Source of the DNA: a virus
Virus record (IMG/VR): IMGVR_UViG_3300042505_000752
Coordinates: 32,001-96,000 of that record
Direction: 5' to 3' (one strand)
Length of the DNA: 64,000 nucleotides
Under the pieces are notes generated by a model. The model was given only the letters and a program-made list of their open reading frames with translations. It was not told the origin of the DNA and searched no databases. Within the stretch, counting starts at the first letter, position 1. The number at the start of each line of letters is the position of its first letter. Shown piece after piece: positions 32,895 to 61,767 of the stretch. The position numbers and the translations under genes are program-made.

Positions 32895-34832
32895 TTGGAA
32901 GATAGTAGCCGCAGGGAAAATCATCCTGACTGGGTTCAGGCAAGGGTTAAATCATTCATTCAGGACACAAAAGTTGGCACTGTCAGTTCTGGTTCTGGCG
33001 TAGGACAGGCACTACAAGGTGCAGTTTCGTATGTAACTCCTGGTGATGTTAGTGGTGTAACTAGTCCTGTTCGCTCTCGTCTTTACTCTGCCATCACTCC
33101 TGGTGGTCGCGGCTTGCGTCCTCGTGTCAATAGACCAAATGAGCGCGGATATCGTTGCCCTGAGGGATATCAGTTTGGTGGTCGTTTTACTGACTCTAAG
33201 TGGTCTACATGCGGACGACAGTTATTTGATATTCCATCACTATCACGGACTTTGCTCCAAATTGCTGATAACGCTATTCGTGCAGGGCGTGGTATTGGAT
33301 ATCAAAATCCCGACACAAATCCACTTGGCGGAGCAGAAGTTACTGGCGTTTCATTGATCCAAAGCCGTATGGCAAATGTTCCTCGTGTTGGTGCTTATGA
33401 TAAAAAGAAGCGTGACGATGGCTTAAAGGCGGCAATTGACGAGTTAGTCAATCCATTGGCTCCAGCGTCAATGATGATTCGGCGCGATGGTTTCCCAATG
33501 CAACCAGTCGTTTCTGCTGGAGAATTACGGAAAGTTCCAGACAATCGCAATATGGAAGGCGCAGTCTTTCTATTGTCTGCATCCAATATTGATTCTTTTG
33601 GTGGCGATGAATTGGGTTTATTGTCAAATACTGGCGTGAGCACTTTGATTTATGTTCTACCTAATGGTTCTACTGTTCGTATGGACAAAACCCGTGCGTT
33701 AACCGTAGGCGAACGGCGCAAGTTGGGCAAGACTGTCAGTTCGGCATCCAAGATTGACAATAGTAATGATCCATTGGCTCGTCTAAAAATGGTCATTTCA
33801 GACTCTGGTGGCGGAATTTCTATCAACAAAGATTTTTCTAAAATTCGCAATGCTGAAGAAGTTGTTGATTCAGGCAAATTTAAAGGAAAGCCTCGCTGGG
33901 TTGCTGAAGCGTTTCGCAATAGTGGCAAAAAGCGTACTGTTTCTCCCCAGTCAATTGTTGATGATTCCAAGTTGGATTCCGAAACAGAAACTCAGGCAAG
34001 TAAAAATATCAATGATGTAGAAACCGCTATTGAACATATAAACAACGGTGGAAATCTTTCTGATATTAATCCTGCTATTTTGCCTCAGGCTATTCGTCGT
34101 GCAAAAGTTTATCGTCAAAAGAATATTGGATCTGGTCGTATTCTTTTTGAGCGTACTGACGGCGGTGTTTCTTTTATAGAGGTTTCCAATGGAAAGCGCC
34201 TTGAGCATCTTGGTGCCCATTTTTCTGCCGCTATCGCTGAACATCTTGAATTGCCTACTCCTAAAATCCGCATCATGGGTGAAGGAGACAATCGTCCTTA
34301 CCTCGTTCAGAATATTGATACTGTCGTGCCAAATGGCAAATTACAATCTATGAAGTTGACAGATATGCCAGCCAAAGACCTTGCTGGTATTTTTGTTTCT
34401 GATTACTTGACAGATGTTCGCAAACGAAATCCTTCTACTGTTTCGGCTGTTTCTGCTGATGGTAAAGTTCGCGCAATTGCAACGATGAATGCCCCCTCAT
34501 CATTGGCTGGTTTATCTGCTGAAGAAATGATTAAGCGTCGTTCCATTGTTATTGGCGATTGGGCAAAATCAGATGGAAATAATATCCTAAAAGCCATCCA
34601 AAATCGCAATGAAGAAGTTCGTCGTCAAATTCTGGCTGTTTATGAAGATTTAATTCAACGAGCACGCGCTTTTAAATGGGATTCTTACATTAAGCAACTA
34701 CGGTTAGACGGTAAACTTTCTAGTGCAGAACAAAAGCATATGGATATTGTGAAATCTCTATATGACCAAAGACTAGACAATTTAGCCAAGTCTAAGGAAT
34801 CTTTTGCTAATATTTTGGAGTTAGGCAAATGA
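32895..34832 (+). CDS. Leader-motif protein with degenerate HipA/PI4K-like (pseudo)kinase domain
   Basis: YRCPEGYQFGGRFTD..WSTCG leader; AIAEHLELPTPKIR and DYLTDVRKRNPS align with the kinase motifs of the next two genes, but DRH and DxG are lost. Confidence 0.55.
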   Translation: MEDSSRRENHPDWVQARVKSFIQDTKVGTVSSGSGVGQALQGAVSYVTPGDVSGVTSPVRSRLYSAITPGGRGLRPRVNRPNERGYRCPEGYQFGGRFTDSKWSTCGRQLFDIPSLSRTLLQIADNAIRAGRGIGYQNPDTNPLGGAEVTGVSLIQSRMANVPRVGAYDKKKRDDGLKAAIDELVNPLAPASMMIRRDGFPMQPVVSAGELRKVPDNRNMEGAVFLLSASNIDSFGGDELGLLSNTGVSTLIYVLPNGSTVRMDKTRALTVGERRKLGKTVSSASKIDNSNDPLARLKMVISDSGGGISINKDFSKIRNAEEVVDSGKFKGKPRWVAEAFRNSGKKRTVSPQSIVDDSKLDSETETQASKNINDVETAIEHINNGGNLSDINPAILPQAIRRAKVYRQKNIGSGRILFERTDGGVSFIEVSNGKRLEHLGAHFSAAIAEHLELPTPKIRIMGEGDNRPYLVQNIDTVVPNGKLQSMKLTDMPAKDLAGIFVSDYLTDVRKRNPSTVSAVSADGKVRAIATMNAPSSLAGLSAEEMIKRRSIVIGDWAKSDGNNILKAIQNRNEEVRRQILAVYEDLIQRARAFKWDSYIKQLRLDGKLSSAEQKHMDIVKSLYDQRLDNLAKSKESFANILELGK

Positions 34833-37800
34833 GTAAAATAGTTCTTATTAAAGACGCAATCAAGGATGAGCCATACGCTCTTGTGTCTTACGACTCCATG
34901 GAGGTTAAGGCATTTGCGCTAACCGACGATGCCGAAGAATGGTCCGAATGGGCTAATCAGTCATGTAAAACAATTGACGAGATTCGTGAAAGTCTTACCT
35001 ATTCACTTCAGACAGAACTCCCACGACCAGCAACTGAAATTGAATTAGATGGAATTAAACAATTCACTACATCTGAGCGTTTTATTCAAATTAAGTCTGC
35101 AATTAGTGAATCAAAACTTGAAATGGTTGGCACATTTAGCCGTCAGAGTCGTCGCTTTGCCGTAAAGACATTGAAAGATTCGGAACTTCCAGAAAGTCCA
35201 TCTTCATTGCCTTTGACTTCTTTTAGTGCTCAAAGTCGGCAGGCAATCATTGAGTACAAGGCATTGTCTTTTAGGGCTGACAATAAGTTTTCGGCTACAG
35301 CATTTGAAGCAAAGGGTGCGCGAGCATTATGGGACCCCGCCCTTGGACCGTCTGGTGGATGGCGATGCCCTCAAGGTTCTCAGTTTGGTGGATACATCAC
35401 TGACCGCTTCGGTCGTGGATGCGGTGGAGGGGTTCTCCGTCGTGTTGGGCGAGCATTAGTTGATGCAGGTCGTGGAATTGACAAATTGGGCGAGGCACGA
35501 GGCGCTCGTCGTCTTGGTCGTGCCGCTGATAAACTCAATGATAAGCCTGGTGGCGGACGCGCTCAGCGTGCCGTTGGTAATGCGGCTAACGCTCTTGAGC
35601 GTGGCGCGCAGGGTCTGGTTGGAGACTACAAGCCTGGTGATGCTGTTTCGCGTCGTCGTGGCGTGTCTGCCCCAGATATTGCTCCCGAGCGTAAGAAGGA
35701 AATTGATGACCGCCTGATGGCTATTCAGGCAGAACTTGATGATCTGGTTGATCAGCCCCCGACTGGCGATATTGAGAAGCGCATTACAGAACTTACCAAT
35801 GAAAATAAGAAATTGCGTCGCGAGCGAGATGGCGCAATGCCAAAGCGTGTTTCTGCCGTCAAGCCCGCTCCATCAAAGCGCCGTGTTGTTAAGCCTGAGG
35901 CTGGACGCAATGAGCGAGTTCAAGGCAAGCGCCCTGTAAAGAAGCCAGTTACGCAAGGTCGTCGTCAGGGCGTTCTAGATCGTGCCGCTCAACGACTCGT
36001 TGGGGAATATGACCCATCAGAGTATAAGCCTGGTGACAAAAAGCGCATTAAAGACCGCGAAAATCGTTACGCAAAAGTTTCTGATGAAGCATTGATTAAT
36101 GCGCTAAAGATGAACTCGCCCAAGGCTATTAAGCCGGGTCAGAATCGTGACATTGAGGCAAACAAGCGTCAAGAGCGACTTGAAGTTCTTCAGGAAATGC
36201 TCAATCGTGGCATTGATATTCCAGAACAATTTAAGAAAGAAGTCAAGCAGTATCGCTTAAAGCCCCAGCGTAAAAAGCGTGGTGCTAAGGCTGGTAGTCT
36301 CCGTAGTCGTGCCGCCAACGCCCTAGAGCGCGCCGCTCAGCGAGTTCTTGCTGGAGACAAGAATAAGAAGCGTCGTGACCGTAGTCGTCGTAAGCGTGCC
36401 GCTGATGCTTTTGAGCGTGGCGCACAGCGAATTCTTGATGGCAAGAAAAAGCCCAAAAAACAAGATAATCGCAAAAAGCCACAACCAAACGGTGGGCTTA
36501 ACCTACCTGGCGGTGGTCGTGGGATTATTGAACCGCGAGATACTGAAGGTTTGCCAAAACCAGGCATGGGGGGTATGCGAAAGCCTGGTGAAGGTCAAAT
36601 TACTCCTGAAGAACTTCAAGATTTAATAGATAGTAATTTAGGTATTACTGGTCTTTCCGAATTACGCAAACAGTTCAAAGATTATGACGATGCCCAGATT
36701 GACAATTTTTTAAGTCGTTTTGTTAAAGCACGCGAAAAAATGAATAATGATAATCCAGAAAGATTAAAACTTGACAAGTGGATCATCAATCTTGAAATGG
36801 AAAAAACCGCTCGTGAACTTGATCGCCTAAAGAATGGCAAGAGAGAACGAGACAATCAGCGTGTCCGTGCCCGTCGTGCCGTTACCGCTCAAAGCGCATT
36901 TACTCCCATTCGTCGTCCACGCCCAAAGAAAATGAAAGGCGACAAGATTGCTTGGGATGATATGGATGCCCAGCAAAAAGCACGGATGCGTAATCGTGCT
37001 ATCGCTGAACTTGACGACCTTGATGCAAGTTGGCGCAAGCGTCTTGGCTTAAAGAGTAATGAAAAACTCACTGACAAGATGATTCGTGACTACATTAAAG
37101 AACGCGAGAACAACAAGCCTGGTGCTTACATCGGAGTTCTTAAGGCTAACGCCAATGACTGGGGCGTTCTCAAGGACTATGCAAATGACCTTGAAAATGG
37201 GGATATTCTTAATAATCTTGGTCCCAAGCGACGCAAGACACTCGTTGACGACTTGAACAATGCTTCTACCCCCAAGCGTGTCAAGACACCAAGTTCACCA
37301 CGCCCCAAGTCTGCCCCAAGTGCAAAAAAGCGTGATGGTCTAAACGATAATGAAAAGAACCGTCTCAAAGAACTTGACGGACCTGAATTTGATAACCAAG
37401 TAGAAGCATTTGACGAAGCAGAGCGTTTGGCTAAAGCAAATAATGAATCTATGGTTGCGTTTGAACAAGATGGAAAATTCCGTGTTGTTAAGGCGCAAGA
37501 CTTTAACGATCTACTAGATGGTATTGATGATGATAGTCGTATGCAAAATGCGATTGGTAGTGTTCGCCATTTTGATGCCAATGGCAACGAGAGCAAGATT
37601 GATGTTTCCGAGTCTGCTCGCGTTAAGCAATCAATTAAAGAATCACTTGGCATTGATGCTCCAGAATCGCTTGGTGGCTCAATACCCGATGATCGGTCAC
37701 GACGAAATGTGCGTAATCGGTTCCCGAATAATGGACTCCCCGATAAGGCATTCTGGCGAGATAAAGACTGGAAGCCTCGTACTGGTGGAGATGATGCAGA

Positions 37801-40800
37801 AAAGCATGAGCGTAGGTTTGGTCGCTACTTTGATTCCGACGGAAACATCAATGCTCGTGGTCGCTTTGTTAATGGTCAGTTAGAACAAGAGCGAGCAGAA
37901 AAGGCAAAGCCTAGGTTTAGCAAGACACCAGAATCTGTGATTCCAGAATCTGGTCGTAGAAAAACATCTACTTATAGTTTTGGTAAACTTCAAGTTTTTG
38001 GCGAGGATAATAACGGAAGAGTTCTTTGGAAGGACAAAGATGGCTTTGTTATCCCTGACAACATCGTAAATGATGAAGCCGTACGACAACGCTACATGCG
38101 TTATGCAAAAGAGGGGCGAGATGCCTATCTAAATGCAGAATTTGCACGAAATCTTGGCAAAAAAATTGATGACCTTTTAGTTAATAACGACCCTGAGAAG
38201 CGTCGTGAATTAAGGAATAATCTTCAAAATCTTATTGAAGATCGGCGTTTGTTGATTTCACGAGAAAACCCTGTTGCGGTTCGTGGTTCGTGGGCTGGGG
38301 AATTAGTTGCATTGCAAAATATGCTTAATGAGTTGGATTCTCATCCAAACGCAGTAGATATTTCTCCAATGAAAAATGAAGGACTTGATTCCTTACCCAA
38401 GGCTTCTATTAAGCGTCGCGATTCATCCCTTATTAAATTGCCTGAATTTAAAAAAGAAAAAGAAGTATTCGTTCAATATTATGACCTTCGTAATGACAGG
38501 TTTAAAGCACATCTTGAAAACGACAGGCTTGATGATGCAAATATCATGATTGAAGGACTTGCTAACGAAATTGATGGGCATAACAGGATGCTGGCTGACC
38601 CTGCAATGCCTGAAGAAGACAGGGTTAAAATTTTAGCGCGCCGTTCAGCCGCTCTTGAAAAAGTAGGTAAGTTTAACCAAGATTTGCAACTTCGTATGGA
38701 TGAAATTAATAAACGAATTGGCGCAGAAAACGCTGCACGATGGGGAATCCCAAGACTTATGACCAACCCCGAAGGTAACGCAACTCCAGATAGTGCTGAG
38801 GCACGACTTGCAATCCTTGGAAATAATTACCAGATTAAATTTGCAAAAAACATTCGTCTTGAAGGAGCAAAAGACCGCGCTGCGGAACTTGCAAAAGAAA
38901 AAAATGATGGCGAAGGAATCTATGTTACAAAAGATATAAAGAGTGGTAAATTCTTTTTATTAACTCGGGCTGATTTTGAAGAAGCAGTTAAAAACGATGC
39001 TTTTTCTGAAAATTATGTTGTTGATGCTGTCGTCTATGCCGCAAAGACCCCAGCGCCACCAAAGCCTCCTAGCGTTGCAAGAATTCCTGATTTGAATGAT
39101 CCGTTTGATGGATTTAAATCGCGTTTTAGTCCTATGGATTTTGATGCGGATGATAAAGATAATCCAATCAAGGCAGCAAGAAAATATGCTGTTGAATTTG
39201 ATAGTGATTTTGTAGTTGCACAACGCTTGAATGATGGTAAGCAATTTGTTCTTGATGCCCGTGACTGGAACGACTTTGTAAACTCTCCAAAAATAAATAG
39301 TGATGATTTTGTCGCCGTAGGTATTTTTGGTGGGTATGGCAAAGATACCGATGGAATGCCCAAGTTAAATGATGGCAAAAAACGACTTATTGACGAAATG
39401 CAAAGTAGAGATTTAGGTCGCGTTTTCCCCAAGGGAAATCGTGTTTTTGGTAGTGGTGATAAAAAGGCAAGAGAACGCGCTCAAAAATTTGCCAAGCAGG
39501 GAGCAGATGATGATGGGCGCAATCGTTATGTTATTGATACGGGCAAACAATACATGGTCGTCAGTGAAAAAGAATATCAAGAACTACTAGCGGAATTTAA
39601 CAATAATGAACAACGCTTAAACGCGACGCTTTCTCCCGAGAAGTTTATTAGAGAACGAAAAGGCAACAATGCAGTAGGTAGGGATGCCCTTCTTGGTCCT
39701 CAACAAATGCCAATTGATGCCGACGAGTACAAGGATGCTGTCATTGCGGTGCATGACGGCAATGGTGCTATTGACCAAATACCTGATGCACTATTTGCTG
39801 CTGTTATATTTGACGAGAATCTTGAAGATACTATTCGTCCCGGAAATAGGGTGGCTCCGCAACCATTAATAAATGATGACGGCAGTCAAGCCACATTTGA
39901 GGATATTTTTAGTGGACGAATGAAACCAGGCTACGGCGCTGAATTTGAAAACAAACGATTTAAATTTAAAAACTTTAAAGATGCGGGCGATTCATACGGT
40001 GGAATTTGGTCAGTATATAGAGTTGAGGACAAGCAGACTGGAGAAATTTGGTTTATTAAATCTTCCACATATGGTGCCAATGACGCAATGCTGGAAGATA
40101 TCGGCATGGAGGCTGCTGGTATTTTTAATTTTGCCGCCAAGAATGATGCAAAGCAAATAAGAATTTCCGCTCCGATTGCTGTTGAAAAAAATGGCAGGCA
40201 AGTCAGATGGACTGCCATGCGCGATATTGATCAATGGGATGCTCCAAATGGTGAGGCTTTAACTTGGGTAGATGCTGGCGATGGTGGAAATATTCAAGGG
40301 CGAAGTGTCAGCCTTGAAGATATGGCTGCCGTTTTAGTTCTTGACTATGTTCTAGATAACCAAGATAGGCATGCAGGAAACTTTAAAATTGCGACTGATT
40401 CAAATGGCGTTCAGCGTCTAGGTGTCATTGACAATGGGCTAATGTTTGGCGGACGGGCATATGACATGCTTCCACTAAGTCACGATGATGAAGTCACTCC
40501 AATGGGTCTTAATGAACTTGCCGAACAAAGAAAAGCCTTAGACCTTGAGGGTTACAAAAAAGGTACTGGCCATATCTTATTACGGAGTCTACCAAGTACA
40601 TTTATTGATCGTCTTCGTCAGAGTCAATTTGATAGAGATGAATTTAATCTTCAGGTAAAATACTCAATTGAAACAATGCGAGAAAGTATTGACAGAATTC
40701 TTGATGAGCAAAGACTAAAGGGTAAGGGCATTTCACTTAGCGGTACAGAACTAGCACATTTAAAGGCAATGAAATTAGTTGCTGACGCTCGCTTGAAATA

Positions 40801-40948
40801 TCTTGAATCAAACCCAGATGCATTCCTTGAGGTTTTTAACATAACTGGTTCAATACCTAGTCCAATAAATGCCCCAATGTCGCCAATTCGTCGTCCTAGG
40901 GGATTAACTGGTCGTCAGGTTGGTTTGCCATCGGGTGGAGGATTATAA
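34829..40948 (+). CDS. 2039-aa leader-motif protein with C-terminal HipA/PI3K-PI4K-like kinase domain
   Basis: WRCPQGSQFGGYITDRFGRGCGGG leader; WFIK (beta3 Lys), LEDIG, DYVLDNQDRHAGN (40364-40381), VIDNG (40430-40438). Confidence 0.75.
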   Translation: MSKIVLIKDAIKDEPYALVSYDSMEVKAFALTDDAEEWSEWANQSCKTIDEIRESLTYSLQTELPRPATEIELDGIKQFTTSERFIQIKSAISESKLEMVGTFSRQSRRFAVKTLKDSELPESPSSLPLTSFSAQSRQAIIEYKALSFRADNKFSATAFEAKGARALWDPALGPSGGWRCPQGSQFGGYITDRFGRGCGGGVLRRVGRALVDAGRGIDKLGEARGARRLGRAADKLNDKPGGGRAQRAVGNAANALERGAQGLVGDYKPGDAVSRRRGVSAPDIAPERKKEIDDRLMAIQAELDDLVDQPPTGDIEKRITELTNENKKLRRERDGAMPKRVSAVKPAPSKRRVVKPEAGRNERVQGKRPVKKPVTQGRRQGVLDRAAQRLVGEYDPSEYKPGDKKRIKDRENRYAKVSDEALINALKMNSPKAIKPGQNRDIEANKRQERLEVLQEMLNRGIDIPEQFKKEVKQYRLKPQRKKRGAKAGSLRSRAANALERAAQRVLAGDKNKKRRDRSRRKRAADAFERGAQRILDGKKKPKKQDNRKKPQPNGGLNLPGGGRGIIEPRDTEGLPKPGMGGMRKPGEGQITPEELQDLIDSNLGITGLSELRKQFKDYDDAQIDNFLSRFVKAREKMNNDNPERLKLDKWIINLEMEKTARELDRLKNGKRERDNQRVRARRAVTAQSAFTPIRRPRPKKMKGDKIAWDDMDAQQKARMRNRAIAELDDLDASWRKRLGLKSNEKLTDKMIRDYIKERENNKPGAYIGVLKANANDWGVLKDYANDLENGDILNNLGPKRRKTLVDDLNNASTPKRVKTPSSPRPKSAPSAKKRDGLNDNEKNRLKELDGPEFDNQVEAFDEAERLAKANNESMVAFEQDGKFRVVKAQDFNDLLDGIDDDSRMQNAIGSVRHFDANGNESKIDVSESARVKQSIKESLGIDAPESLGGSIPDDRSRRNVRNRFPNNGLPDKAFWRDKDWKPRTGGDDAEKHERRFGRYFDSDGNINARGRFVNGQLEQERAEKAKPRFSKTPESVIPESGRRKTSTYSFGKLQVFGEDNNGRVLWKDKDGFVIPDNIVNDEAVRQRYMRYAKEGRDAYLNAEFARNLGKKIDDLLVNNDPEKRRELRNNLQNLIEDRRLLISRENPVAVRGSWAGELVALQNMLNELDSHPNAVDISPMKNEGLDSLPKASIKRRDSSLIKLPEFKKEKEVFVQYYDLRNDRFKAHLENDRLDDANIMIEGLANEIDGHNRMLADPAMPEEDRVKILARRSAALEKVGKFNQDLQLRMDEINKRIGAENAARWGIPRLMTNPEGNATPDSAEARLAILGNNYQIKFAKNIRLEGAKDRAAELAKEKNDGEGIYVTKDIKSGKFFLLTRADFEEAVKNDAFSENYVVDAVVYAAKTPAPPKPPSVARIPDLNDPFDGFKSRFSPMDFDADDKDNPIKAARKYAVEFDSDFVVAQRLNDGKQFVLDARDWNDFVNSPKINSDDFVAVGIFGGYGKDTDGMPKLNDGKKRLIDEMQSRDLGRVFPKGNRVFGSGDKKARERAQKFAKQGADDDGRNRYVIDTGKQYMVVSEKEYQELLAEFNNNEQRLNATLSPEKFIRERKGNNAVGRDALLGPQQMPIDADEYKDAVIAVHDGNGAIDQIPDALFAAVIFDENLEDTIRPGNRVAPQPLINDDGSQATFEDIFSGRMKPGYGAEFENKRFKFKNFKDAGDSYGGIWSVYRVEDKQTGEIWFIKSSTYGANDAMLEDIGMEAAGIFNFAAKNDAKQIRISAPIAVEKNGRQVRWTAMRDIDQWDAPNGEALTWVDAGDGGNIQGRSVSLEDMAAVLVLDYVLDNQDRHAGNFKIATDSNGVQRLGVIDNGLMFGGRAYDMLPLSHDDEVTPMGLNELAEQRKALDLEGYKKGTGHILLRSLPSTFIDRLRQSQFDRDEFNLQVKYSIETMRESIDRILDEQRLKGKGISLSGTELAHLKAMKLVADARLKYLESNPDAFLEVFNITGSIPSPINAPMSPIRRPRGLTGRQVGLPSGGGL

Positions 40949-40949
40949 A

Positions 40950-41291
40950 ATGGAACAAGATATTCAAAGAACAGAAAAATCGTTAAAAGATTTAAAAAAG
41001 GAAATTACATATCCTGCCGTTATTTACCATGAATCAGAAGCGGGAAATATTGCTCCAATTTTAGTACTTGAACGAAAAGGCAGAATTACTCATTATTTTT
41101 GGGATGATGTAAATCGCTATGATTCTGATATGTACAATGTTGTTGGCGATATTGTAAAACTATCTACAAATTCACAGTCAACGGCAAAGCAATTCTTTAT
41201 TGACAATGCCACTCCTGTAGATATTAATAGAGTTATAGATCAGGCTAAGAAAAATAAGATAGTCAAACCAGAACCTAAAGGCAAAAAATAA
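40950..41291 (+). CDS. Small protein, candidate immunity/antitoxin of the upstream kinase
   Basis: ATG one base after the kinase stop; RBS GGAGG; start 40950 preferred over 40920. Confidence 0.5.
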   Translation: MEQDIQRTEKSLKDLKKEITYPAVIYHESEAGNIAPILVLERKGRITHYFWDDVNRYDSDMYNVVGDIVKLSTNSQSTAKQFFIDNATPVDINRVIDQAKKNKIVKPEPKGKK

Positions 41292-41293
41292 AA

Positions 41294-44200
41294 ATGACTA
41301 CCGATTGCGAAACTTGTCGTCCTCTTGTAAAGGTCATGAACCCCCAGATGTCTACTGACCGCAGGCGGTTTATGATTGAGAGCAAGGCTGCCGAATATCG
41401 CAAACACATGGGTCAGCCGAGCGGTTTGTTGCAAAAGGGTGCTCGGGCAATATTTGACCCTAAACTTGGTCCGTCTGGTGGATATCGCTGTCCTGAAGGG
41501 AGCCAGTTTGGTGGTTACATTACCGACCGCTTCGGCAGAGGCTGTGGTGGGGGTATTATTCGCCGTGTCGGGCGAGCCTTTGGAAAACTAGGTCGTGGAT
41601 TAGATAACATTGCAGACAGGCGTGACCGTAGTCGTTTGGGTCGTGCCGTCAATCGCCGTAGCAAGCCCAATCGCGTTACTCGCGCCGCTGGTGCTCTAGA
41701 GCGTGGAGCACAAAGACTTGTTGGCGAATACAAGCCTGGTGACTACAAACCAGGTGACGGCGGTCGTCGTAATAGGCGCAACCTACCTGGTGGATCATCC
41801 CTGAGGCGTTCTGCTGTTCCACGCAAACCTAAGCGTGAACGCAAACTGCCCAAAGACGGGGACAAGAAGCCTCGCACCCAAGGGGCAACTCCCAAAAAGC
41901 GCCCCATTGTTGAACGCGCTGCTGAAGGTCTAGAACGCGCTGCTCAGCGTGTTCTAGATGAAGATCGCAAGAAAAGAACACAAGGCGCTAAGCCTGCCAA
42001 ACCCAAGAAGCCTGTTGCTCCTAAGGTTCCTTCGCTGAAGCCAAATCTCTCAGAAGATAAAAAACCAAACATCACTGACATCAATGATATTGACTGGGAT
42101 AATTTAACTCCCGAACAGCGTGACGAAATTCAAGGCATCCGTTGGGATGCTTTTAGTGAACTTGAAGCCGAAATGTCCAAGTACATGGGTGTTCCAGCGG
42201 CTCGTATGGACCCTGATGGGTTTGTAAAACGAAATGAAAAAAATAAAAATGTTGAAAAATATGCAGGGGATGCTCGTAAGTGGAGACAATTACAAAACGA
42301 CTTTGAAGATATGCCAGCAGAAGCAATTAAAGAGATTGACTGGACCGACGAAGAACGCAAGAAAATTCTTGATGTCGTTAATGGGAATGCAAAGCCCAAG
42401 AAGCCCAAGACCCGTGGTGCTGACTTCTGGGAACGACGCAAGAATAACAAGCCGATTAAGCCTGAAGAATTAGATGTTGAAGATGCCCCAGAGATTTTTT
42501 CAAGCAAGCCAGACGGCGTACCCGAAAGTGCTCGTAATGTTAAGGCTTGGGAGCAGGCGTTTAAGGATGAAATAGATAAGTATTTTGCTGAAAAAAATGT
42601 AGATCGCCTTGAAAAATTAAAAAAGACAATAGATTTGATTCTTAACAAAGATGTCATGAATCTATCTTCTGCTATGCGTCGGATGCTTCAGGAAAAAATT
42701 AATGACATAGAGAAAAAGACTGTTGCCCTTCGTGCACGAAAAGCACGAGGTGCACGCACTGCCACACCAAAACCAAAACTTCCTAGTCTTGTAGGTAAGC
42801 CAGTAAAGCGTAATCCAAAAATTAATCGTATTAAAGATAATGTTATTGATGCTTTGCGTATCAACAATATGCGTGACAATGCCATGGGCGACTTTGCACG
42901 CGACGCAATTGGCGATGGCTTAATTGCTTTTCCTGAGAATATTTTTAATGATGACATCAAAAATGTGACAGATGCAGTGAAGTGGCTTGATGATGGAAAA
43001 TCATTATACGAAATTCCACAACATTATTGGGCTGAAGCAATAAATGAACATGTAGACAGTCGTAATCCTGGTCCAAAGCAATATAAAAGAATTGATATCA
43101 ATAATCCAGGTGCTATGAAATCTATTAACATGTATGAAAAATTAAATCAAGATGGCAGTGGTAGTGGGACTGGTGTTGTTTTTGCTCGTGCTCCAGGTAA
43201 TGCACGGGATGGCATGGGCGAAGTTTTAGGTCAGCAAGTCCTCAATGCCCTTGGCATGAATGTTGCTCCAGCGCGGTTTGATGGAATTGTAAGAGAACAA
43301 AATAATGGCAGAGATGTACCAGTTGCTGTAATGCCATTTGCTTGGAACAGGGCTGCTGCTGGAAAAATAGACCGAGGTAAGGCTGGTTATAACTTTGACA
43401 GGTCTGTCTTTGACCAATTTGAAGATAAAGCGTTACCTATGCGGTTAGCAAATTTATTAGGTAATTATTTTATGGGAATTAGCGACAGGCACCACAATAA
43501 TGGGATGGCAGGGGTTATTGATGGTCAGCCTTATATTGTCCCTATTGACCTTGGGTGGAACGGCATAAAAAGAAAATTTTACGAGTATCAAGGCGATGAT
43601 TGGCTTCATGGATTTTCAATGGACCCCGACTTGGTTGGCGTTATTAAGTCTCATTTAGCAAAACTTGAACCCAAAGAGGCTGAAAAACAACGCAATAAAA
43701 TAATTGAAGTTTTTGATGGCATGATCTTACGAGGCGATGCAATACTTGCTCAAGGAAAAGATAAATTTATTGAGGATGCCATAGGAATGATGCATCTTGG
43801 TGCTGATGCAGTGCCAAATATGCAAATGCGTAATGGAGTTGACAGAAAAGAACTTGAATCTATGATGAAAGAAAAAGCATTAGGCATATTTACTGCTATG
43901 GAATCCAATATTGCATCATTGAAAAAAGAAAGAACAGATTTATTTGCTAAATGGGGATTAAAAAATGCTCCCCCATTAGGAGTTCTTGAAGTAGTTAGCA
44001 AACCAAAGCCAAAAAACCCCAAGGCACCTAAGCCAAAAGCGCCCGCCCCTGCAAAGATTACCAATAATGTGGCTTCAAAGGGTAAGAAAATTGGACCGCT
44101 CCCAGCACTTGTTGTAGCAGAACCACAAAAACGATACAACAAGGTTCCTGTACTTGGTAAAGCATCTGGAGACAATCCCCTACCAATTCCAGATGACATT

Positions 44201-45274
44201 GTTAATTCTGAAATTACAAACTTGGATGACGCAGTTAGATGGCTTGATGAGGGTAATCGTATTTCTCAAGTTCCTCAAAAGTTTTGGGCGCAAGCCATAA
44301 ACGGTCATGTTGATGGAAATGCACCCAATAAACAATTTACTCGCCTTGCACAACAAGGTGGAATTATAAAAATGACGCAAATTTTTGGTGCTCTTGATAA
44401 CGATGGTAATTTTGTAAATCAGGGATTCTTATTGCAATACGATGGTGATGACCCCAAAAACGCTGTTGAGGTTTTTGCTCTTAACATTATGCATGGGCTT
44501 GGATTAAATGTTGAGCCTGCACGCTTTGACGGAGTTTTTAGACCTGACGAAGTTCCAGTTGCAGTTATGCCATTTGCTTGGAACAACGCACCAGAAGGTG
44601 ATGTTGTTCTTCCAAAAGATTTACCCCAGTGGGATGTAAATCGTTCTGATATTTATGTTGATGAAGACTATATTCCAAATTTTGAACATCAACAATTTGA
44701 CAATTTGCCAGACAAGGCATACCCGCAAAGAATTGCCGCAATGATAGGTAACTTCATTTTGCAAATTCCAGATAGACATAATCAAAACGGCATGGGGGGA
44801 ATGTTTGGTGGCAAGCCCCATGTTGTTCCAATTGACTTAGGTTGGGCTGGAAAAAATGGATATATTGGAAATATGAACATGTTCTTTTCACAACAATTCA
44901 AAATTGATAGGACTTTTGATGCGGACAACGGAGACATGGAGCCAGATTTCCGTAAAAATATTTCAAATCATTGGTCATCAATAAGTGATGATGCCGAAAG
45001 AGTTAGACAACAAAAAGTTATTGTTGATCTTTATGATGACATGATCGCTCGTGGAAAAGCAATGACTCAAGATAAAGATAAATTCATTAATGACCTGTTA
45101 ATTGGACTTCACGATGCAGGAAATAACGCAATAATTAGAAACAAAGCAGAACAAGAAGCAAGAAATATGCTCAAGATGATGATGAGGTCAATTGCTAATA
45201 TGGAAAGCGAAAGAGATAATTACCTTAAAAGTATTTTTAGTATTGATGAAGCCGTTATAAAAGGTGGTGCATGA
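41294..45274 (+). CDS. 1326-aa leader-motif protein with two tandem HipA/PI4K-like kinase domains
   Basis: YRCPEGSQFGGYITDRFGRGCGGG leader; GISDRHHNN..PIDLGW (43484-43558) and QIPDRHNQN..PIDLGW (44771-44845). Confidence 0.75.
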   Translation: MTTDCETCRPLVKVMNPQMSTDRRRFMIESKAAEYRKHMGQPSGLLQKGARAIFDPKLGPSGGYRCPEGSQFGGYITDRFGRGCGGGIIRRVGRAFGKLGRGLDNIADRRDRSRLGRAVNRRSKPNRVTRAAGALERGAQRLVGEYKPGDYKPGDGGRRNRRNLPGGSSLRRSAVPRKPKRERKLPKDGDKKPRTQGATPKKRPIVERAAEGLERAAQRVLDEDRKKRTQGAKPAKPKKPVAPKVPSLKPNLSEDKKPNITDINDIDWDNLTPEQRDEIQGIRWDAFSELEAEMSKYMGVPAARMDPDGFVKRNEKNKNVEKYAGDARKWRQLQNDFEDMPAEAIKEIDWTDEERKKILDVVNGNAKPKKPKTRGADFWERRKNNKPIKPEELDVEDAPEIFSSKPDGVPESARNVKAWEQAFKDEIDKYFAEKNVDRLEKLKKTIDLILNKDVMNLSSAMRRMLQEKINDIEKKTVALRARKARGARTATPKPKLPSLVGKPVKRNPKINRIKDNVIDALRINNMRDNAMGDFARDAIGDGLIAFPENIFNDDIKNVTDAVKWLDDGKSLYEIPQHYWAEAINEHVDSRNPGPKQYKRIDINNPGAMKSINMYEKLNQDGSGSGTGVVFARAPGNARDGMGEVLGQQVLNALGMNVAPARFDGIVREQNNGRDVPVAVMPFAWNRAAAGKIDRGKAGYNFDRSVFDQFEDKALPMRLANLLGNYFMGISDRHHNNGMAGVIDGQPYIVPIDLGWNGIKRKFYEYQGDDWLHGFSMDPDLVGVIKSHLAKLEPKEAEKQRNKIIEVFDGMILRGDAILAQGKDKFIEDAIGMMHLGADAVPNMQMRNGVDRKELESMMKEKALGIFTAMESNIASLKKERTDLFAKWGLKNAPPLGVLEVVSKPKPKNPKAPKPKAPAPAKITNNVASKGKKIGPLPALVVAEPQKRYNKVPVLGKASGDNPLPIPDDIVNSEITNLDDAVRWLDEGNRISQVPQKFWAQAINGHVDGNAPNKQFTRLAQQGGIIKMTQIFGALDNDGNFVNQGFLLQYDGDDPKNAVEVFALNIMHGLGLNVEPARFDGVFRPDEVPVAVMPFAWNNAPEGDVVLPKDLPQWDVNRSDIYVDEDYIPNFEHQQFDNLPDKAYPQRIAAMIGNFILQIPDRHNQNGMGGMFGGKPHVVPIDLGWAGKNGYIGNMNMFFSQQFKIDRTFDADNGDMEPDFRKNISNHWSSISDDAERVRQQKVIVDLYDDMIARGKAMTQDKDKFINDLLIGLHDAGNNAIIRNKAEQEARNMLKMMMRSIANMESERDNYLKSIFSIDEAVIKGGA

Positions 45275-45666
45275 TGGCTCAATATTTAATTATTTTTGGA
45301 CCTTTTGGAACACCACAGAATAATTCTAAAAATGCTGTTGCTTTTAAAACTTCTGGTTCAAATATTCAAATTACCTGTTCTAAAAACAAAATGAATTATT
45401 GGAAAAATCGCATTAATGAATCTTTAGTTTTGGCAAGTTCATTTAAAGGTAATGAAGTTCAATTAGACAATTTTGCAAAAAACAGTAGTTATGTATCTTC
45501 TATATTTTTTGATGATTCTAATTATGATGAGTACAAAAAACTTTTTGAATCAGTTAATGGTGTTAAAAGTGTAGTAAAAATTGACAGAGTACCAACTTAT
45601 GACGAACCAGATTTTGACCCTAAAAAAGTTGAAAATTTCTATAAAAAGTTTGAGAAGAAAAAATAA
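45271..45666 (+). CDS. Small protein, candidate immunity protein 1 (paralogue of 45666..45995)
   Basis: ATGA overlap with the double-kinase gene; clear similarity to the next ORF. Confidence 0.55.
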   Translation: MMAQYLIIFGPFGTPQNNSKNAVAFKTSGSNIQITCSKNKMNYWKNRINESLVLASSFKGNEVQLDNFAKNSSYVSSIFFDDSNYDEYKKLFESVNGVKSVVKIDRVPTYDEPDFDPKKVENFYKKFEKKK

Positions 45667-45995
45667 TGGCTGAGTATCTTATTTATCATGGCGACTTTGG
45701 TTCCAGTATTGACGACCCCGGTCTTATGTCTATTAAGGCTGATGGGGTTAAGTTAACCATTCGTGCATCTCGCAACATGATGGAAGAGTGGAAGGGTCGT
45801 ATTGAAAATTCTAGAGTTTTGCAGGGTTCGGTAAATGACGGTCAAGTAGACCTTGAAAGATATATTTTTGCTAACAAGTATTCCACATGGACATTCTTTA
45901 CTCAAGAAGAATTTGATGACTATAAAAAAGTGTATAATTCTGTAAAAGGTTCAACTGTAGTTGTGACTATCAAGCCAGAGAAAAAGGGCGACTGA
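45666..45995 (+). CDS. Small protein, candidate immunity protein 2 (paralogue of 45271..45666)
   Basis: MAEYLIYHGDFG...WKGRIENSRVL...FDDYKKVYNSVKG versus MAQYLIIFGPFG...WKNRINESLVL...YDEYKKLFESVNG. Confidence 0.55.
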   Translation: MAEYLIYHGDFGSSIDDPGLMSIKADGVKLTIRASRNMMEEWKGRIENSRVLQGSVNDGQVDLERYIFANKYSTWTFFTQEEFDDYKKVYNSVKGSTVVVTIKPEKKGD

Positions 45996-45996
45996 A

Positions 45997-48900
45997 ATGG
46001 CAAAGATGCGCGCGTCATCCAAAGAAGATGCAATGAAGATTGCACGCTATGTTGGATGTTCTGGCGCACACCAAGATAAGAAGGGGAATTGGATACCTTG
46101 TGCCAATCCCGAAGATCTTGTAGAGATTCTAGATAAATCTGCAAGAAACTCTACTGAAAAATTAACTAAAAAGAAGCGTCGTCGGTTTGTTAATGGTCAA
46201 TGGGAAAGACTCGGAGAACGAGGTCCTATCAGTATTGACACAATTGACGGCGGTGGACTTGTGTCTGGTATGGGCAAGTCCTTGACTCAATGGTTTAAAG
46301 AAGAATGGGTTGATATTTCAAGACCCAAAAAAGGTGGCGGTTTTGAGCCGTGCGGACGAGATGATGCAGACAAGGGCAAATACCCCAAGTGCGTTCCAGC
46401 ATCACGAGCCAGCAATATGTCAGAAGAAGAAATTCGCTCTGCTGTTTCACGGAAAAGAAGAGCAGAATCTACACAGAGTAGAGATGACAAAAAGCCTATT
46501 TATGTTCCTACTGATAAAAAGAACGACCCATTCGTTTTGGATGAAAAATCAGCAACACCCACAAATCCAGAACTTTATGCACGGGTTAAGGCTGAAGCAA
46601 AAAAGAAGTTTGATGTTTACCCCTCTGCCTATGCAAACGCTTGGTTAGTAAGGGAATACAAAAAACGAGGTGGTGGATATCGTTCTGAAAAAGCAGACGA
46701 TGGCGATTATGAAGAATCTGTTGAAGATCTTACCGAAATGCAATTATCCGATTTTATTGATTGGGTAGATCAAAAAGAAAAAGCAGAAAAAGTATGCCCT
46801 CCAGCAACTTCTGACATTGGCTTAAATATCAAGAATCGTCAGAATGCCATCAATACTGCTGGTTATGGTCCCCTAAACCCGAAAGAACCCAATGTGGACT
46901 TTTGGGAAAAGAAGGCAAAACGCTGGTCCGTAACGATTGAAGAATCCAAGAAACAAAAGTGCGGAAACTGTGCTGTCTTTATTAAGACTCCTCGGATTCT
47001 TGAATGCATTGAGTCAGGTCTTGGTAATGAGGCTGGAGACACTGCTTGGGATGCAATCAATGCTGGCGACCTTGGATATTGCGAGGCATTTGACTTCAAG
47101 TGTGCTTCTGCCCGTACCTGTGATGCATGGGTCGGTGGAGGTCCAGTAACTGTTGAAAAGGGCAAGCAAGAGGAGAAGGCAGAAACTTCCACGATTATCA
47201 TTGGTCGTGCCAAGCCTCGCATTGGCGATCCTGATGTTTACACCGACCCCAACTCTGCTCGTCTGCGTTCTCGTAAACTTGGTTGCATTGGTATCGCTCG
47301 TAGAGAAACGCCAGATGGAGAAGTTGTCTGGACACCCTGCACAAATATCTCAGATCAACGCAGATACCAAGGCGAAACACCATTAGGTCAGCGAGATGAG
47401 GCTCGGCGTTTTGCTGACAGACTTGCTGAAGTTGGCGGTCCTGATCGTAAGCGCCGACGCATGCGTAAGTATAAGAGCCTTGAATTTGCAACAGACATTA
47501 AGGCATTTCGGACCTTAGGTTCAAGTATGAATAGTCGCGGCATTAGCGGTAATTGTCGCCAATTTACTGGCATTGATGGTGACGGAGATGGATTCGTATG
47601 TAATCCCGCAACTCGCGAGGACGACTTGCCCCTTACGGACACTCGGAAAATTTTTAAGCGTGGCGGTAAAATGCTGTCAAGGGAAGAATTGGTAGAGCAA
47701 GACGAAACAATGCTTAATATGTTTGCCAAAGGTGAACCTTTATCGCGAATTGCTGAAGAAGTAGGTCTTGACAAAAGAGAAGTTGAATTTTTAATTAAAA
47801 ATTTCCGTAAACAACAACCAAAAGTTGCATTTACAATATTCAACAATCGCGATATCAATATTCAAAAAAAACGCGAAGAGCGCAGAAAATTAGCGCTTGA
47901 GAATGTTAGGCGAGAGGCAAATGCCAACCGCAAATTAAATGCAAGAGGCGAAGACCCTACGCCAGAATCTGATGATGATCTTGATTTTACTCTTGACCCA
48001 GATAAGGTTCCGCAATATCTTAAAAAGAATTTTGCTAAATATATGCAACGCTTAAAAGACCCTGAATTTGCTGATGAAATAAAAAAAATTGCTGATGATT
48101 TGCGTGCTGGTCTTGGTTTGGCTGGAACGGCAAAAAAATACAAACGAGACTCAGCATTTATAGAAATTGTTCGTAGAAATGAAAAAATTACAAAAACAAA
48201 AAAACTACAAAGAGAACTCCTAGGCGTTCCTGATTTTAACAATGATACCGATGACCCCGATTTCACTCTTGACCCCGACAAAGTTCCAAAATTTTTACAA
48301 AGGAATTTGCTTAACAATATTAGGATAGCAAGAAGTCCTGAGTTTGCGGAAGAAAGAAAGAAAATTGCTGACGACTTACGCCTTGGTCTTGGAATTGCTT
48401 CCGTAAGATTGAAATACAAACGAGACTCGGCATTTGTAGACATAGTTCGCAGGCTTGAAAAAATTCCAAAATCAAGAGAAAACAAAAAAGTTGATCCTAA
48501 AATTAGACAGGATGTTGTTGACCTTGTAGATAAATTGATTAAAGATGATAATCCATTCATGTCGGTTGCCGAAATCGCAAAAGAATTTAAAATTACTGGA
48601 ATAGATGCGCGTCGGATTATTAATGCTGCAAAATTGGAAAAATATTTTGATTTGCACAATAAATATACAGACGCAAAAAGAAAAAAACTTTTTGCTGAAG
48701 TTGCTGAACTTCATAAACTTGATCTTACATATGATGAAATTGGCAAGCGTTTAGGAATTAGTGAAAACTCAGTAAATCACATTGCGAAAAAAATGAAACT
48801 ACCTAAAAGAAAGTTTGTGACAAAACGGAATGTTCCTCAAGTAATAAGGAGGGGTGGTGATGTAATTCCTCGTTCTTTAGCAATGAAACAAAATAAAGAA

Positions 48901-49239
48901 ATGCTTGATCTATATGAGCGAGGCTGGTCTATTACGGATATTGCTAAAAAAATGGGAATTGGTGTTGCTACTGTAAAACAAATTCTTATAAAATTTGAAA
49001 AAGATAACAAAGTTCGCCTTCGTGGAAATAATGTTATTGAAAAAGAAAATCAAATAAGAAAACTTCTAAAAGAAGGTTTGCATCCTCGCGAGATTATGCG
49101 AGACATTATTGGCAATATTCCGTATGGCAGAATTTTAGAAATTGCAAAAGAAGAGGATATTGAAATCCCATCTATGCGTAAATTTAAATCCGACAATCAA
49201 AACTTCAATTCATTTGAGAACGATGATTATTTTTACTAA
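45997..49239 (+). CDS. 1080-aa multi-module head-associated protein with C-terminal array of HTH motifs
   Basis: Two GC.G....W.PC modules, LTQWFKEEWVD module, PTNPELYARVK..YKKRGGGY module, Cys-rich CGNC..C..C module, DGDGDG motif, several sigma-r4/LuxR-like HTHs. Confidence 0.65.
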   Translation: MAKMRASSKEDAMKIARYVGCSGAHQDKKGNWIPCANPEDLVEILDKSARNSTEKLTKKKRRRFVNGQWERLGERGPISIDTIDGGGLVSGMGKSLTQWFKEEWVDISRPKKGGGFEPCGRDDADKGKYPKCVPASRASNMSEEEIRSAVSRKRRAESTQSRDDKKPIYVPTDKKNDPFVLDEKSATPTNPELYARVKAEAKKKFDVYPSAYANAWLVREYKKRGGGYRSEKADDGDYEESVEDLTEMQLSDFIDWVDQKEKAEKVCPPATSDIGLNIKNRQNAINTAGYGPLNPKEPNVDFWEKKAKRWSVTIEESKKQKCGNCAVFIKTPRILECIESGLGNEAGDTAWDAINAGDLGYCEAFDFKCASARTCDAWVGGGPVTVEKGKQEEKAETSTIIIGRAKPRIGDPDVYTDPNSARLRSRKLGCIGIARRETPDGEVVWTPCTNISDQRRYQGETPLGQRDEARRFADRLAEVGGPDRKRRRMRKYKSLEFATDIKAFRTLGSSMNSRGISGNCRQFTGIDGDGDGFVCNPATREDDLPLTDTRKIFKRGGKMLSREELVEQDETMLNMFAKGEPLSRIAEEVGLDKREVEFLIKNFRKQQPKVAFTIFNNRDINIQKKREERRKLALENVRREANANRKLNARGEDPTPESDDDLDFTLDPDKVPQYLKKNFAKYMQRLKDPEFADEIKKIADDLRAGLGLAGTAKKYKRDSAFIEIVRRNEKITKTKKLQRELLGVPDFNNDTDDPDFTLDPDKVPKFLQRNLLNNIRIARSPEFAEERKKIADDLRLGLGIASVRLKYKRDSAFVDIVRRLEKIPKSRENKKVDPKIRQDVVDLVDKLIKDDNPFMSVAEIAKEFKITGIDARRIINAAKLEKYFDLHNKYTDAKRKKLFAEVAELHKLDLTYDEIGKRLGISENSVNHIAKKMKLPKRKFVTKRNVPQVIRRGGDVIPRSLAMKQNKEMLDLYERGWSITDIAKKMGIGVATVKQILIKFEKDNKVRLRGNNVIEKENQIRKLLKEGLHPREIMRDIIGNIPYGRILEIAKEEDIEIPSMRKFKSDNQNFNSFENDDYFY
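47960..48480 (+). repeat. Internal tandem duplication (~83 aa unit) in 45997..49239
   Basis: DFTLDPDKVP...EF.(D/E)E.KKIADDLR.GLG.A....KYKRDSAF..IVRR.EKI occurs twice, also visible in the DNA. Confidence 0.85.
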
Positions 49240-49401: not shown

Positions 49402-50700
49402 ATGTCAGTAGACGAAGGTCGCCTCACAGAATTGCAGTCTGCACTGCGTTCAAAAATGGCTGATAACAAGGCTATCGCTGATTCGTTCAGCATTGAAGAT
49501 GGCGTTGTACAGGTCACCACCCAGCAAAAGTCAGCGTTTGACAAGAACATGTCAGACATCAAGGAAATCAAGAGCCTCATTGAGGGTCTTGAGTCCATGC
49601 GTCAGGTTGAGCAGTGGGGTTCCGCCCCTATCAGCGATTCAATCGCTGCTACTGCCGCTGCTGCAGGATTCCACATTCCCCGTGGCGCTAAGAGCCTCGG
49701 TGAATTGTTCATTGATTCGCCTGAATTCAAGTCGCTTGCTGGCGGTAAGAATGGCGCAAACATGCCCAGCCCGTTCCAGTTGAACAGTAGCGTCGCAGGA
49801 CTCGGTTCATTCAGCCAGAAGGACTTGTACTCGTCATTGCCGAGCGGTACTCCTGGTGCATTCGGTAGCGTTCAGCGCGACCCGATTGTTGTGCCCCCAA
49901 TGCGTACCAAGCGCGTTCGTGACTTGTTCCCGACCCGTACCACCACTGCCGCCGTTATTGAATACTTCCGTATGACTGGCTTCACCAATGCCGCTTCAAC
50001 CGTTGCCGAGCGCAATGGTGGAAACACCTCATTCGGTGCAAAGCCACAGTCGGGCTTCACTTTCGCTGGCGCTCAAGCACCCGTTCGTACCTTGGCTCAC
50101 TGGGAAGCCGCTCACCGCAATGTTCTTGCCGATGAACCGCAATTGCGTTCAATCATTGACAACGAATTGATGTACGGTCTGCGTCTTGCCGAAGATGACC
50201 AAATCCTCAACGGTGACGGAACTGGCGAAAACCTTGAAGGTGTTCTCCAGACCTCGGGCATTCAGGCATACGCAAAGGGCGACAGTGGCGTTGCTTCTGA
50301 CAACTATGCTGACGCGATTCGTCGTGCGGCTACCTTGTCGTTCCTCGCTTACTACGAGCCAACGGGCGTTGTTATGCACCCGAATGACTGGGAGCAGATT
50401 GAATTGTCCAAGGACGACAATGGTCAGTACCTCGTTGCTGTCAGCGTCGCCCTCGGTGGCGAACCCCGCTTGTGGCGCATCCCCGTTGTGGAAACTCCAG
50501 CAATTGCTGAAGGAACCGCTTTGGTTGGTGCATTCGGCACTGGCGCACAGTTGTACGACCGTGAGCAGGCTTCAATTCGCATCAGCGAACAGCATGCTGA
50601 CTTCTTCGTGCGTAACGCCATCGTGATTCTTGCCGAACAGCGCCTTGCGCTCGCCGTCAAGCGTCCTGAGGCATTCGTTGCCGTGGACTTCACTTCCTGA
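49402..50700 (+). CDS. HK97-fold major capsid protein
   Basis: N-terminal delta domain, RVRDLF, AHWEAAHRNVLAD, EDDQILNGDG, VMHPNDW, FVRNAIVILAEQR..VKRPEAF; RBS AAGGAG. Confidence 0.96.
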   Translation: MSVDEGRLTELQSALRSKMADNKAIADSFSIEDGVVQVTTQQKSAFDKNMSDIKEIKSLIEGLESMRQVEQWGSAPISDSIAATAAAAGFHIPRGAKSLGELFIDSPEFKSLAGGKNGANMPSPFQLNSSVAGLGSFSQKDLYSSLPSGTPGAFGSVQRDPIVVPPMRTKRVRDLFPTRTTTAAVIEYFRMTGFTNAASTVAERNGGNTSFGAKPQSGFTFAGAQAPVRTLAHWEAAHRNVLADEPQLRSIIDNELMYGLRLAEDDQILNGDGTGENLEGVLQTSGIQAYAKGDSGVASDNYADAIRRAATLSFLAYYEPTGVVMHPNDWEQIELSKDDNGQYLVAVSVALGGEPRLWRIPVVETPAIAEGTALVGAFGTGAQLYDREQASIRISEQHADFFVRNAIVILAEQRLALAVKRPEAFVAVDFTS

Positions 50701-61476: not shown

Positions 61477-61767
61477 ATGTTTCCCACAAGCCAACCAGTG
61501 TTCTTCAAGAAGGCTAACTGCCTAGGACAGACACACTTAATGTTCCCCCAGCACCATAAGGACATTACTTACATCCAACAAGCACGAGAACTCTGTAGTA
61601 CTTGCAGTGTGAGCAAACAATGCCTAGAATATGCTCTTGAATTTCCAGCAGCAGACATGCACGGAGTATGGGCAGGTCTGACAAGTAGGCAGTTATCTGC
61701 GGAACAAAAGCGCAGGGGAATCAAGGCTACACGACCCACATTGGCTCAAATGTGGGGGGATAAGTAA
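61477..61767 (+). CDS. whiB: WhiB-family transcription factor
   Basis: Four Cys (ANC...CSTCSVSKQC), EYAL, HGVWAGL turn. Confidence 0.9.
   Translation: MFPTSQPVFFKKANCLGQTHLMFPQHHKDITYIQQARELCSTCSVSKQCLEYALEFPAADMHGVWAGLTSRQLSAEQKRRGIKATRPTLAQMWGDK

Follow-up and report, generated by a model that had tools for sequence, protein, structure and literature searches.

Kinases of the PI3K/PI4K family (PF00454), which takes in the type II PI4 kinases and the bacterial effector kinases CtkA and LepB, have a bilobal atypical fold with DRHxxN and ID(F/L)G motifs, a combination shared by the phage domains described here. HipA and HipT have a related kinase fold, and a gene for a protein of ~100 amino acids (aa) adjoins that of the kinase; HipS neutralises HipT, as the small proteins encoded beside the phage kinases could do for theirs. 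Polymorphic toxins join a conserved N-terminal module to variable C-termini, with a small gene directly downstream that is exchanged together with the C-terminal domain. MuF toxins and polyvalent proteins are likewise multidomain, with variable effectors, an immunity-like gene downstream and recombining cassettes; both are virion-associated, with predicted delivery alongside DNA (PMC5576092, PMC5512222). No kinase is found among MuF effectors (PMC5576092), and the kinase known from polyvalent proteins, a truncated one of the Ser/Thr type, differs from the domains considered here (PMC5512222). The subject of this analysis is a locus in a 64,000-nucleotide (nt) stretch of viral DNA (positions 32,001 to 96,000 of IMG/VR record IMGVR_UViG_3300042505_000752; hereafter the window), where a giant head-module protein of 1326 aa ends in two tandem kinase domains and is followed by two small genes. 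The conserved N-terminus and variable C-termini of polymorphic toxins are matched by the giant proteins of this phage, and their jointly exchanged downstream gene is matched by a cassette at 44050–45665 that differs from the locus of a close relative, L003. For MuF and polyvalent proteins the likeness is read from the genes of the phage, whose kinase protein has a new Cys motif, and no MuF domain, as its conserved N-terminal module.

The 1326-aa protein (41294–45274; all genes given here with window coordinates lie on the + strand) comprises an N-terminal Cys motif, a basic region and the kinase domains. Its N-terminal 550 aa have an isoelectric point (pI) of 10.1 and a net charge of +44, and its last 790 aa form two homologous units. 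Kinase domain 1 (aa 540–891; 42911–43966) is delimited by a domain hidden Markov model (HMM) with an independent E value of 2e-137; a Pro/Lys-rich linker, seen in the translation, follows (43967–44167), leading to kinase domain 2 (aa 959–1317; 44168–45244), delimited by the same HMM. An earlier note on this DNA, made from the letters alone, had called the two domains clear paralogues, and so they are: 42950–44200 and 44201–45271 share 35% identity over 362 columns (BLASTP, E 2e-60), and the motifs which that note quoted (PARFDG, VPVAVMPFAWN, DRH..N and IDLGW) are found in each. Domain 1 presents GAMK (43109–43123), VVFAR (43175–43189), a helix-C Glu in GEVLG, DRHHNN (43484–43501) and IDLGW (43544); domain 2 presents GIIK (44360–44374), FLLQY (44426–44440), a Glu in VEVFA, DRHNQN (44771–44788) and IDLGW (44831). 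Two DRHxxN motifs are present in 16 of 16 homologue clusters of the protein.

Both small genes are translationally coupled to what precedes them. Partner gene 1 (45271–45666) encodes a 131-aa protein of pI 9.2 and overlaps the kinase stop codon through ATGA; partner gene 2 (45666–45995) encodes a 109-aa protein of pI 5.4 and overlaps gene 1 through TAATG. Every gene junction here is overlapping or 1 nt apart (GCATGATGG, TAATG, TGAAATG), and therefore the kinase and small genes are expected to be translated as one unit with the surrounding head genes. The two small proteins are paralogous to one another (36% identity, E 1e-20), again as the earlier note had it.

The 131-aa protein gave a confident AlphaFold2 model (predicted local distance difference test score (pLDDT) 89.4, predicted template modelling score (pTM) 0.81), which arranges three N-terminal strands, helices, two more strands and a C-terminal helix. 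Neither Foldseek (best E 0.35) nor an exhaustive VIA-align comparison (best Z 2.9) finds a relative of this model among PDB entries, and BFVD gives no structural match. Neither HipS nor HipB appears among the structural match rows, and HipS–HipT entries are present in the PDB. The small proteins have no match in Pfam, PHROG functions, NCBIfam or PADLOC, and no Atlas hit.

The pairing of kinase domain with small gene extends well beyond the window. Pattern scans of viral contigs gave 19 and then 17 loci (36 in total, one of the second set lying on the contig of L003), and 24 loci hold a kinase domain together with downstream DNA, several of these being near-identical copies. The related loci keep the head module, but their giant proteins have nothing in common beyond an N-terminal module, GPSGG(Y/W)RCP...GRGCGGG, and vary in length and C-terminus. 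Across the 24, each kinase-ending open reading frame (ORF) is followed directly by one ORF of ~100–145 aa wherever downstream DNA is present. The ratio of domains to small genes is 2:2 in the window and in L003 and 1:1 in L004 and L005 (144-aa ORF); four further loci (L011, L013, L016 and L017) have a single domain followed directly by one 106–115-aa ORF, and in L025–L040 one 97–117-aa ORF lies at most 45 nt after every kinase-ending ORF with downstream DNA, arrays included. The arrays are found in L030 and L036–L040, as rows of three or four kinase-ending proteins with an ORF of ~100 aa after each, and in several giant proteins of these loci the sequence begins anew with the Cys motif seen in the window.

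When the small ORFs and N-termini of all loci, from both strands and 1688 in number, were searched with an HMM built from the small proteins, 26 sequences were found, and all of the locus-derived ones lie directly 3' of a kinase. Next in score came further downstream ORFs, N-terminal sequences from the first giant protein, and homologues of a 113-aa ORF described below. Profile comparison ties the groups of 103–105-aa and 116–117-aa ORFs to the partner family (E 6e-5 and 8e-16, respectively). The ORF groups that follow weaker kinase-like domains match each other at E 9.5e-9 and make up a second family, whose tie to the partner family is not secure. The co-duplication and cognate pairing that the earlier note read from the 2:2 match are supported, at the level of sequence, by the one-per-domain counts, by the specificity of the partner HMM and by joint cassette exchange.

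That exchange is seen in the comparison with L003. DNA identity between the window and L003 is 81–99% until ~43.0 kb and 66–86% across domain 1, falls from ~70% to 42% at ~44050, within the linker, and stays at 42–60% from ~44,050 to ~45,660. It then reads 67% in 45551–45700, a comparison interval spanning the junction of the 131-aa and 109-aa genes, and 86–99% from 45,701. The linker, domain 2 and gene 1 (44050–45665) are therefore one exchanged block, set between domain 1 and gene 2. Protein identities follow suit: ~98% for the N-terminus, 70% for domain 1, 40% for domain 2, 36% for the 131-aa protein, 92% for the 109-aa protein and 90% for the 1080-aa protein that follows. In the domain tree, the only kinase of L004 is the sister of domain 2. 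The ORF after it, an orthologue of gene 1, encodes a protein that resembles the 131-aa protein (E 7e-21) more than the 109-aa protein (E 1e-9) and has a C-terminal extension in common with the former. On the joint divergence from L003 and these L004 affinities, we infer that the 131-aa protein is the cognate of domain 2, and the 109-aa protein that of domain 1. L003 also differs from the window at 42251–42400, where it has an insertion of 115 aa (345 nt) in the stretch of 'IDW..(E/Q)R' repeats that precedes domain 1.

The earlier note had cautioned that the β3 lysine appears replaced, so that these might be atypical kinases or enzymes of another chemistry. The replacement is correct: the β3 column holds Ala in domain 1 (VVFAR) and Gln in domain 2 (FLLQY), where single-domain relatives have the Lys of V-x-K. 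In the tandem proteins the β1–β2 turn instead carries a Lys that is invariant, within G-(A/I)-x-K, where the others read G-G-x-x-G. An assignment of this G(A/I)xK residue as the β3 lysine itself was rejected, the alignment with single-domain relatives placing it in the Gly-rich loop. Among 156 domain instances, Lys is in β3 only in 100, in the loop only in 48, in both in none and in neither in 8; the Glu, D-R-H-x-x-N and D-x-G are retained in nearly all. The caveat is thereby resolved as a lysine relocated to the loop and mutually exclusive with a β3 Lys, and because of this exclusivity and the kept catalytic residues there is good sequence evidence that both domains are active enzymes. WNK kinases offer a parallel: in WNK1 the catalytic lysine, Lys233, takes the place of the third Gly in GxGxxG, and a Cys is found in β3. 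The phage domains make the same move, from β3 to the third Gly of the loop (GGxxG/VxK versus GGxxK/VxQ, VxA or VxN); WNKs are an unrelated kinase lineage, making the relocation convergent. In the domain tree (FastTree, not bootstrapped), a β3-Lys group of the L004 type is nested inside the loop-Lys clade, so the relocation may have occurred, or reverted, more than once within the family.

The AlphaFold2 model of domain 2 (pLDDT 75.6, pTM 0.79) matches PI3Kγ, PI4KIIIβ, Vps34 and CtkA in Foldseek (probability ~1, E 1e-4 to 1e-3). Comparison by VIA-align gives Z scores of 12.0 for CotH, 11.3 for PI4KII (root-mean-square deviation 4.5 over 235 residues), 10.6 for HipA, 10.5 for CtkA and 10.1 for both HipT and Vps34. 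Because these scores are tied, only the fold class is established by the model, namely the atypical kinase class of PI3K/PI4K, HipA, CotH and CtkA, and we leave the subfamily unsplit. A PDB search with a profile of nine domains picks up PI4KIIIβ (E 0.0023), with DRHxxN and IDFG in the alignment, and the DRHHNN/IDLGW and DRHNQN/IDLGW motifs of the two phage domains align residue for residue with those of PI4KIIIβ. The gathering cut-off of PF00454 is unreached, the 1326-aa protein having no hit at E ≤ 0.1; with single domain sequences, one of nine matches PF00454 (E 0.0033). In contrast to PI3K/PI4K enzymes, to which they are ~10–13% identical and below the Pfam cut-off, the phage domains have their own N-terminal helical cap, have the β3 Lys replaced and relocated, and are C-terminal in head-module proteins.

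The family so defined is sizeable. A whole-library profile search returned 194 clusters at 50% identity, 87 of the 194 at E ≤ 1e-30, and in nearly all of these 194 the domain is C-terminal in a protein of 600–3000 aa. There is no match in 50,697 GenBank phages (tblastn, with the whole 1326-aa protein and with two kinase domains), and no copy of the kinase domain in 185,579 prokaryote species genomes. A scan of metagenome contigs returned a single 5.2-kb contig, which ends at the gene, and nothing new came from scans of viral sequences that started from the single domain, from the 109-aa family or from the second tandem lineage. Neither the kinase family, nor the partner family, nor their pairing was found described in the literature searched. 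The overall logic of the locus is known already; the two protein families are new.

We propose that the 1326-aa protein is a giant head cargo whose two active atypical kinase domains each have a cognate small partner, the whole acting as a phage-delivered effector, and we rate the chance of this being right as about even. The protein would belong to a group of several giant cargo proteins whose genes lie after that of the prohead protease and before that of the major capsid protein, all built from a shared N-terminal Cys motif, a very basic region and variable C-terminal effector domains. Each partner would bind its own kinase domain in the producing cell and keep it inactive or packaging-competent until head loading; the kinases would then enter the next host with the DNA and phosphorylate host targets. 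The basic N-terminal 550 aa, the protease–capsid position and the shared N-terminal module argue for loading of the giant proteins into the head. T4 Alt typifies virion-delivered host-modifying enzymes, and analogy with it, and with MuF and polyvalent proteins, suggests that these kinases may be delivered with the DNA. Most simply, the small protein would be a cognate binder made alongside its kinase. An inhibitory role takes a modest lead over one in chaperoning or docking because the catalytic residues are strongly constrained, because, as in polymorphic toxins, kinase and partner move together when they are exchanged, and because a degenerate 645-aa kinase-like protein nearby is without a free partner. 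The earlier note had called the locus a toxin–immunity pair; since the setting is a phage head module, 'virion-delivered effector with a cognate partner (inhibitor or chaperone)' would fit better than the label of a classical bacterial toxin–immunity pair.

Several points weigh against this proposal. Adjacency alone explains the co-inheritance of domain 2 and gene 1, which demonstrates linkage and not interaction, and the tandem loci with downstream DNA number two, from a single lineage. Partner pI spans 4.2–9.5, with no uniform chaperone-like or inhibitor-like signature. A kinase–partner fusion, or a longer fused partner, was looked for among the kinases and partners and none was found, which is weak evidence. 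No cultured phage in the collections searched carries these kinase domains, and it is not obvious why a lytic phage should protect a host about to be lysed.

How the small proteins act is where the alternatives part. They could be cognate chaperones or assembly adaptors that hold each domain in a loading- and ejection-competent state, in the manner of type III secretion chaperones with their effectors, or that dock it in the procapsid; we consider this possible, though distinctly less probable than the proposal above. Strict one-to-one adjacency and translational coupling fit such a role equally well. A possible partner-like segment is also fused to the N-terminus of the protein that follows the 645-aa protein, an arrangement that would suit docking between consecutive cargo proteins: this 2039-aa protein begins (34829–35000) with a weakly partner-like segment, its first ~45 aa (hhalign E 0.002; hmmsearch E 0.013, in one lineage). 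However, the hhalign probability of this similarity is only 12–14%, partner pI is not uniformly acidic, and the partner fold is unlike those of known chaperones. At the other extreme, the small ORFs might be unrelated accessory head proteins, with the 2:2 match a coincidence of two separate duplications. Neither small protein has a functional annotation that would speak otherwise, but the one-to-one rule recurs in many independent lineages, the family is found only downstream of kinase domains, and the conservation patterns of kinase and partner mirror each other, all of which make coincidence very improbable.

A classical polymorphic toxin–immunity system, in which a HipA-like growth-arresting kinase is aimed at competing bacteria or superinfecting phages and immunity proteins shield the carrier, would account for the shared N-terminus, the variable C-terminus, the small gene directly 3' and the cassettes exchanged jointly. 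The structural neighbours include HipA and HipT (Z 10.1–10.6), and MuF-linked polymorphic toxins are known in phages (PMC5576092). Yet neither a prophage nor a bacterial copy turned up in the 185,579 species genomes, and an integrase was not seen here either, leaving no evident carrier in need of immunity, and the MuF-like region of this phage is on the portal rather than on the kinase protein. The comparison with HipA/HipT itself is partial: the phage partner gene lies downstream of the kinase instead of upstream, there is no helix-turn-helix (HTH) partner, no match of the partner model to HipS was seen, and the genes sit in a phage head operon, whereas HipA/HipT is a chromosomal toxin–antitoxin module. 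We regard this explanation as unlikely. A further, speculative idea concerns the substrate. Actinobacteria, unusually among bacteria, make phosphatidylinositol lipids in quantity, and the domains might be lipid kinases, not protein kinases, that phosphorylate host phosphatidylinositol and so remodel the membrane as infection begins. Before delivery, the partners with their new fold would cap the face that binds lipid. We think it improbable that this is their activity.

Should the delivered-effector proposal hold, polymorphic-toxin logic (a delivery module, swappable effectors and a cognate small protein) would extend to proteins carried as cargo in a phage head, and a large unannotated kinase family of 194 clusters would join the virion-delivered host-modifying enzymes. 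The lysine relocation, independent of that in WNKs and cleanly exclusive with the β3 position, informs how kinase active sites tolerate rewiring. The partner has a confidently predicted fold without a solved relative. The locus is also a natural two-by-two set, one pair conserved and the other exchanged, that makes specificity directly testable.

Two further kinase-like proteins precede the 1326-aa protein in the window. The first, of 645 aa (32895–34832), has a degenerate kinase-like C-terminal half (DVRKRN, ATMN), found by the domain HMM in two pieces (E 7.2e-7); the protein is conserved across loci and is without a free partner in this lineage. In L030 and L036, the equivalent of the 645-aa protein is followed by a free 104–105-aa ORF. 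The second, of 2039 aa, ends in a canonical kinase domain (39800–40945) with GGIWSVY, WFIK, DRHAGN and IDNG. The 2039-aa protein approaches PF00454 (E 1.3e-5; 25.6 bits, under the 27.1 cut-off), and the domain profile hits its cluster representative, which is not letter-identical to the protein of the window, at E 5.6e-13; the locally built domain HMM gives only E 0.11 on the window's own protein. This kinase domain also weakly matches PHROG 3162, a family without assigned function (E 9e-6), and PDC-M03A, which PADLOC lists as a candidate defence family (E 3e-4). Directly after it, in the position equivalent to a partner, is the 113-aa ORF (40950–41291), which is conserved alongside its kinase in L003 (85% identity). 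Sequence and profile comparisons of this ORF with the two partners gave no significant similarity, and with no detectable homology it was not counted as a member of the partner family.

These three consecutive head-module proteins have the conserved part of their sequence opened by a two-cysteine motif, (G)GYRCP...GG..TDRFGR.CG.G. It reads GPSGGYRCP...GRGCGGG in the 1326-aa protein (41468–41554), where it is shared with the other two; motif comparison locates the same motif in the 2039-aa protein (35345–35431) and a weaker version in the 645-aa protein (33144–33215). Repeated A-x-ALERGAQRLVG(E/D)YKPGD units follow, in the very basic region. Across loci, the GPSGG(Y/W)RCP module occurs in proteins of 840–3450 aa with differing C-termini, and the Cys motif is kept in distant phage lineages whose proteins otherwise differ, including a class of unrelated length. 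Conceivably it serves as a capsid-targeting or processing signal.

The source record is a 128,966-bp genome of an uncultured virus, estimated to be 87% complete, of which the window is a part. The head-gene block opens with the portal protein (26604–28874), whose C-terminus is MuF-like (portal aa ~505–755 match MuF/head-morphogenesis PHROGs, a portal–MuF fusion), and continues with the prohead protease (28968–30653). On the + strand there follow proteins of 521, 207 and 645 aa, the 2039-aa protein, the 113-aa ORF and the 1326-aa protein, then both small ORFs, a protein of 1080 aa with multiple HTH motifs and a capsid protein of HK97 type (49402–50700). The opposite strand encodes a tail sheath, a tape measure and terminase, which identifies the virus as a myovirus. 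The genome has two WhiB-family genes (E 6e-17 and 2e-13), which mark actinobacterial hosts, one at 61477–61767 and the second beyond the window, at genome positions 10596–10796. Its capsid protein shares 50% identity with the capsid proteins of myoviruses that infect Brevibacterium and Gordonia. On these two grounds the host is most likely an actinobacterium; the WhiB genes and contig identifiers, taken unchecked, suggest that the hosts are probably aquatic actinobacteria. In Gordonia phage Gray, the genes that separate portal from capsid include those of an ADP-ribosyltransferase toxin and an HTH protein of 971 aa, and head-module cargo genes therefore have a precedent in this lineage. The 1080-aa protein of the window (45997–49239), just upstream of the capsid gene, contains DUF3721, DUF5872 and several HTH/sigma-70 region 4-like motifs, and may be injected DNA-binding cargo. 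All related loci have shorter relatives of this protein in the same position.

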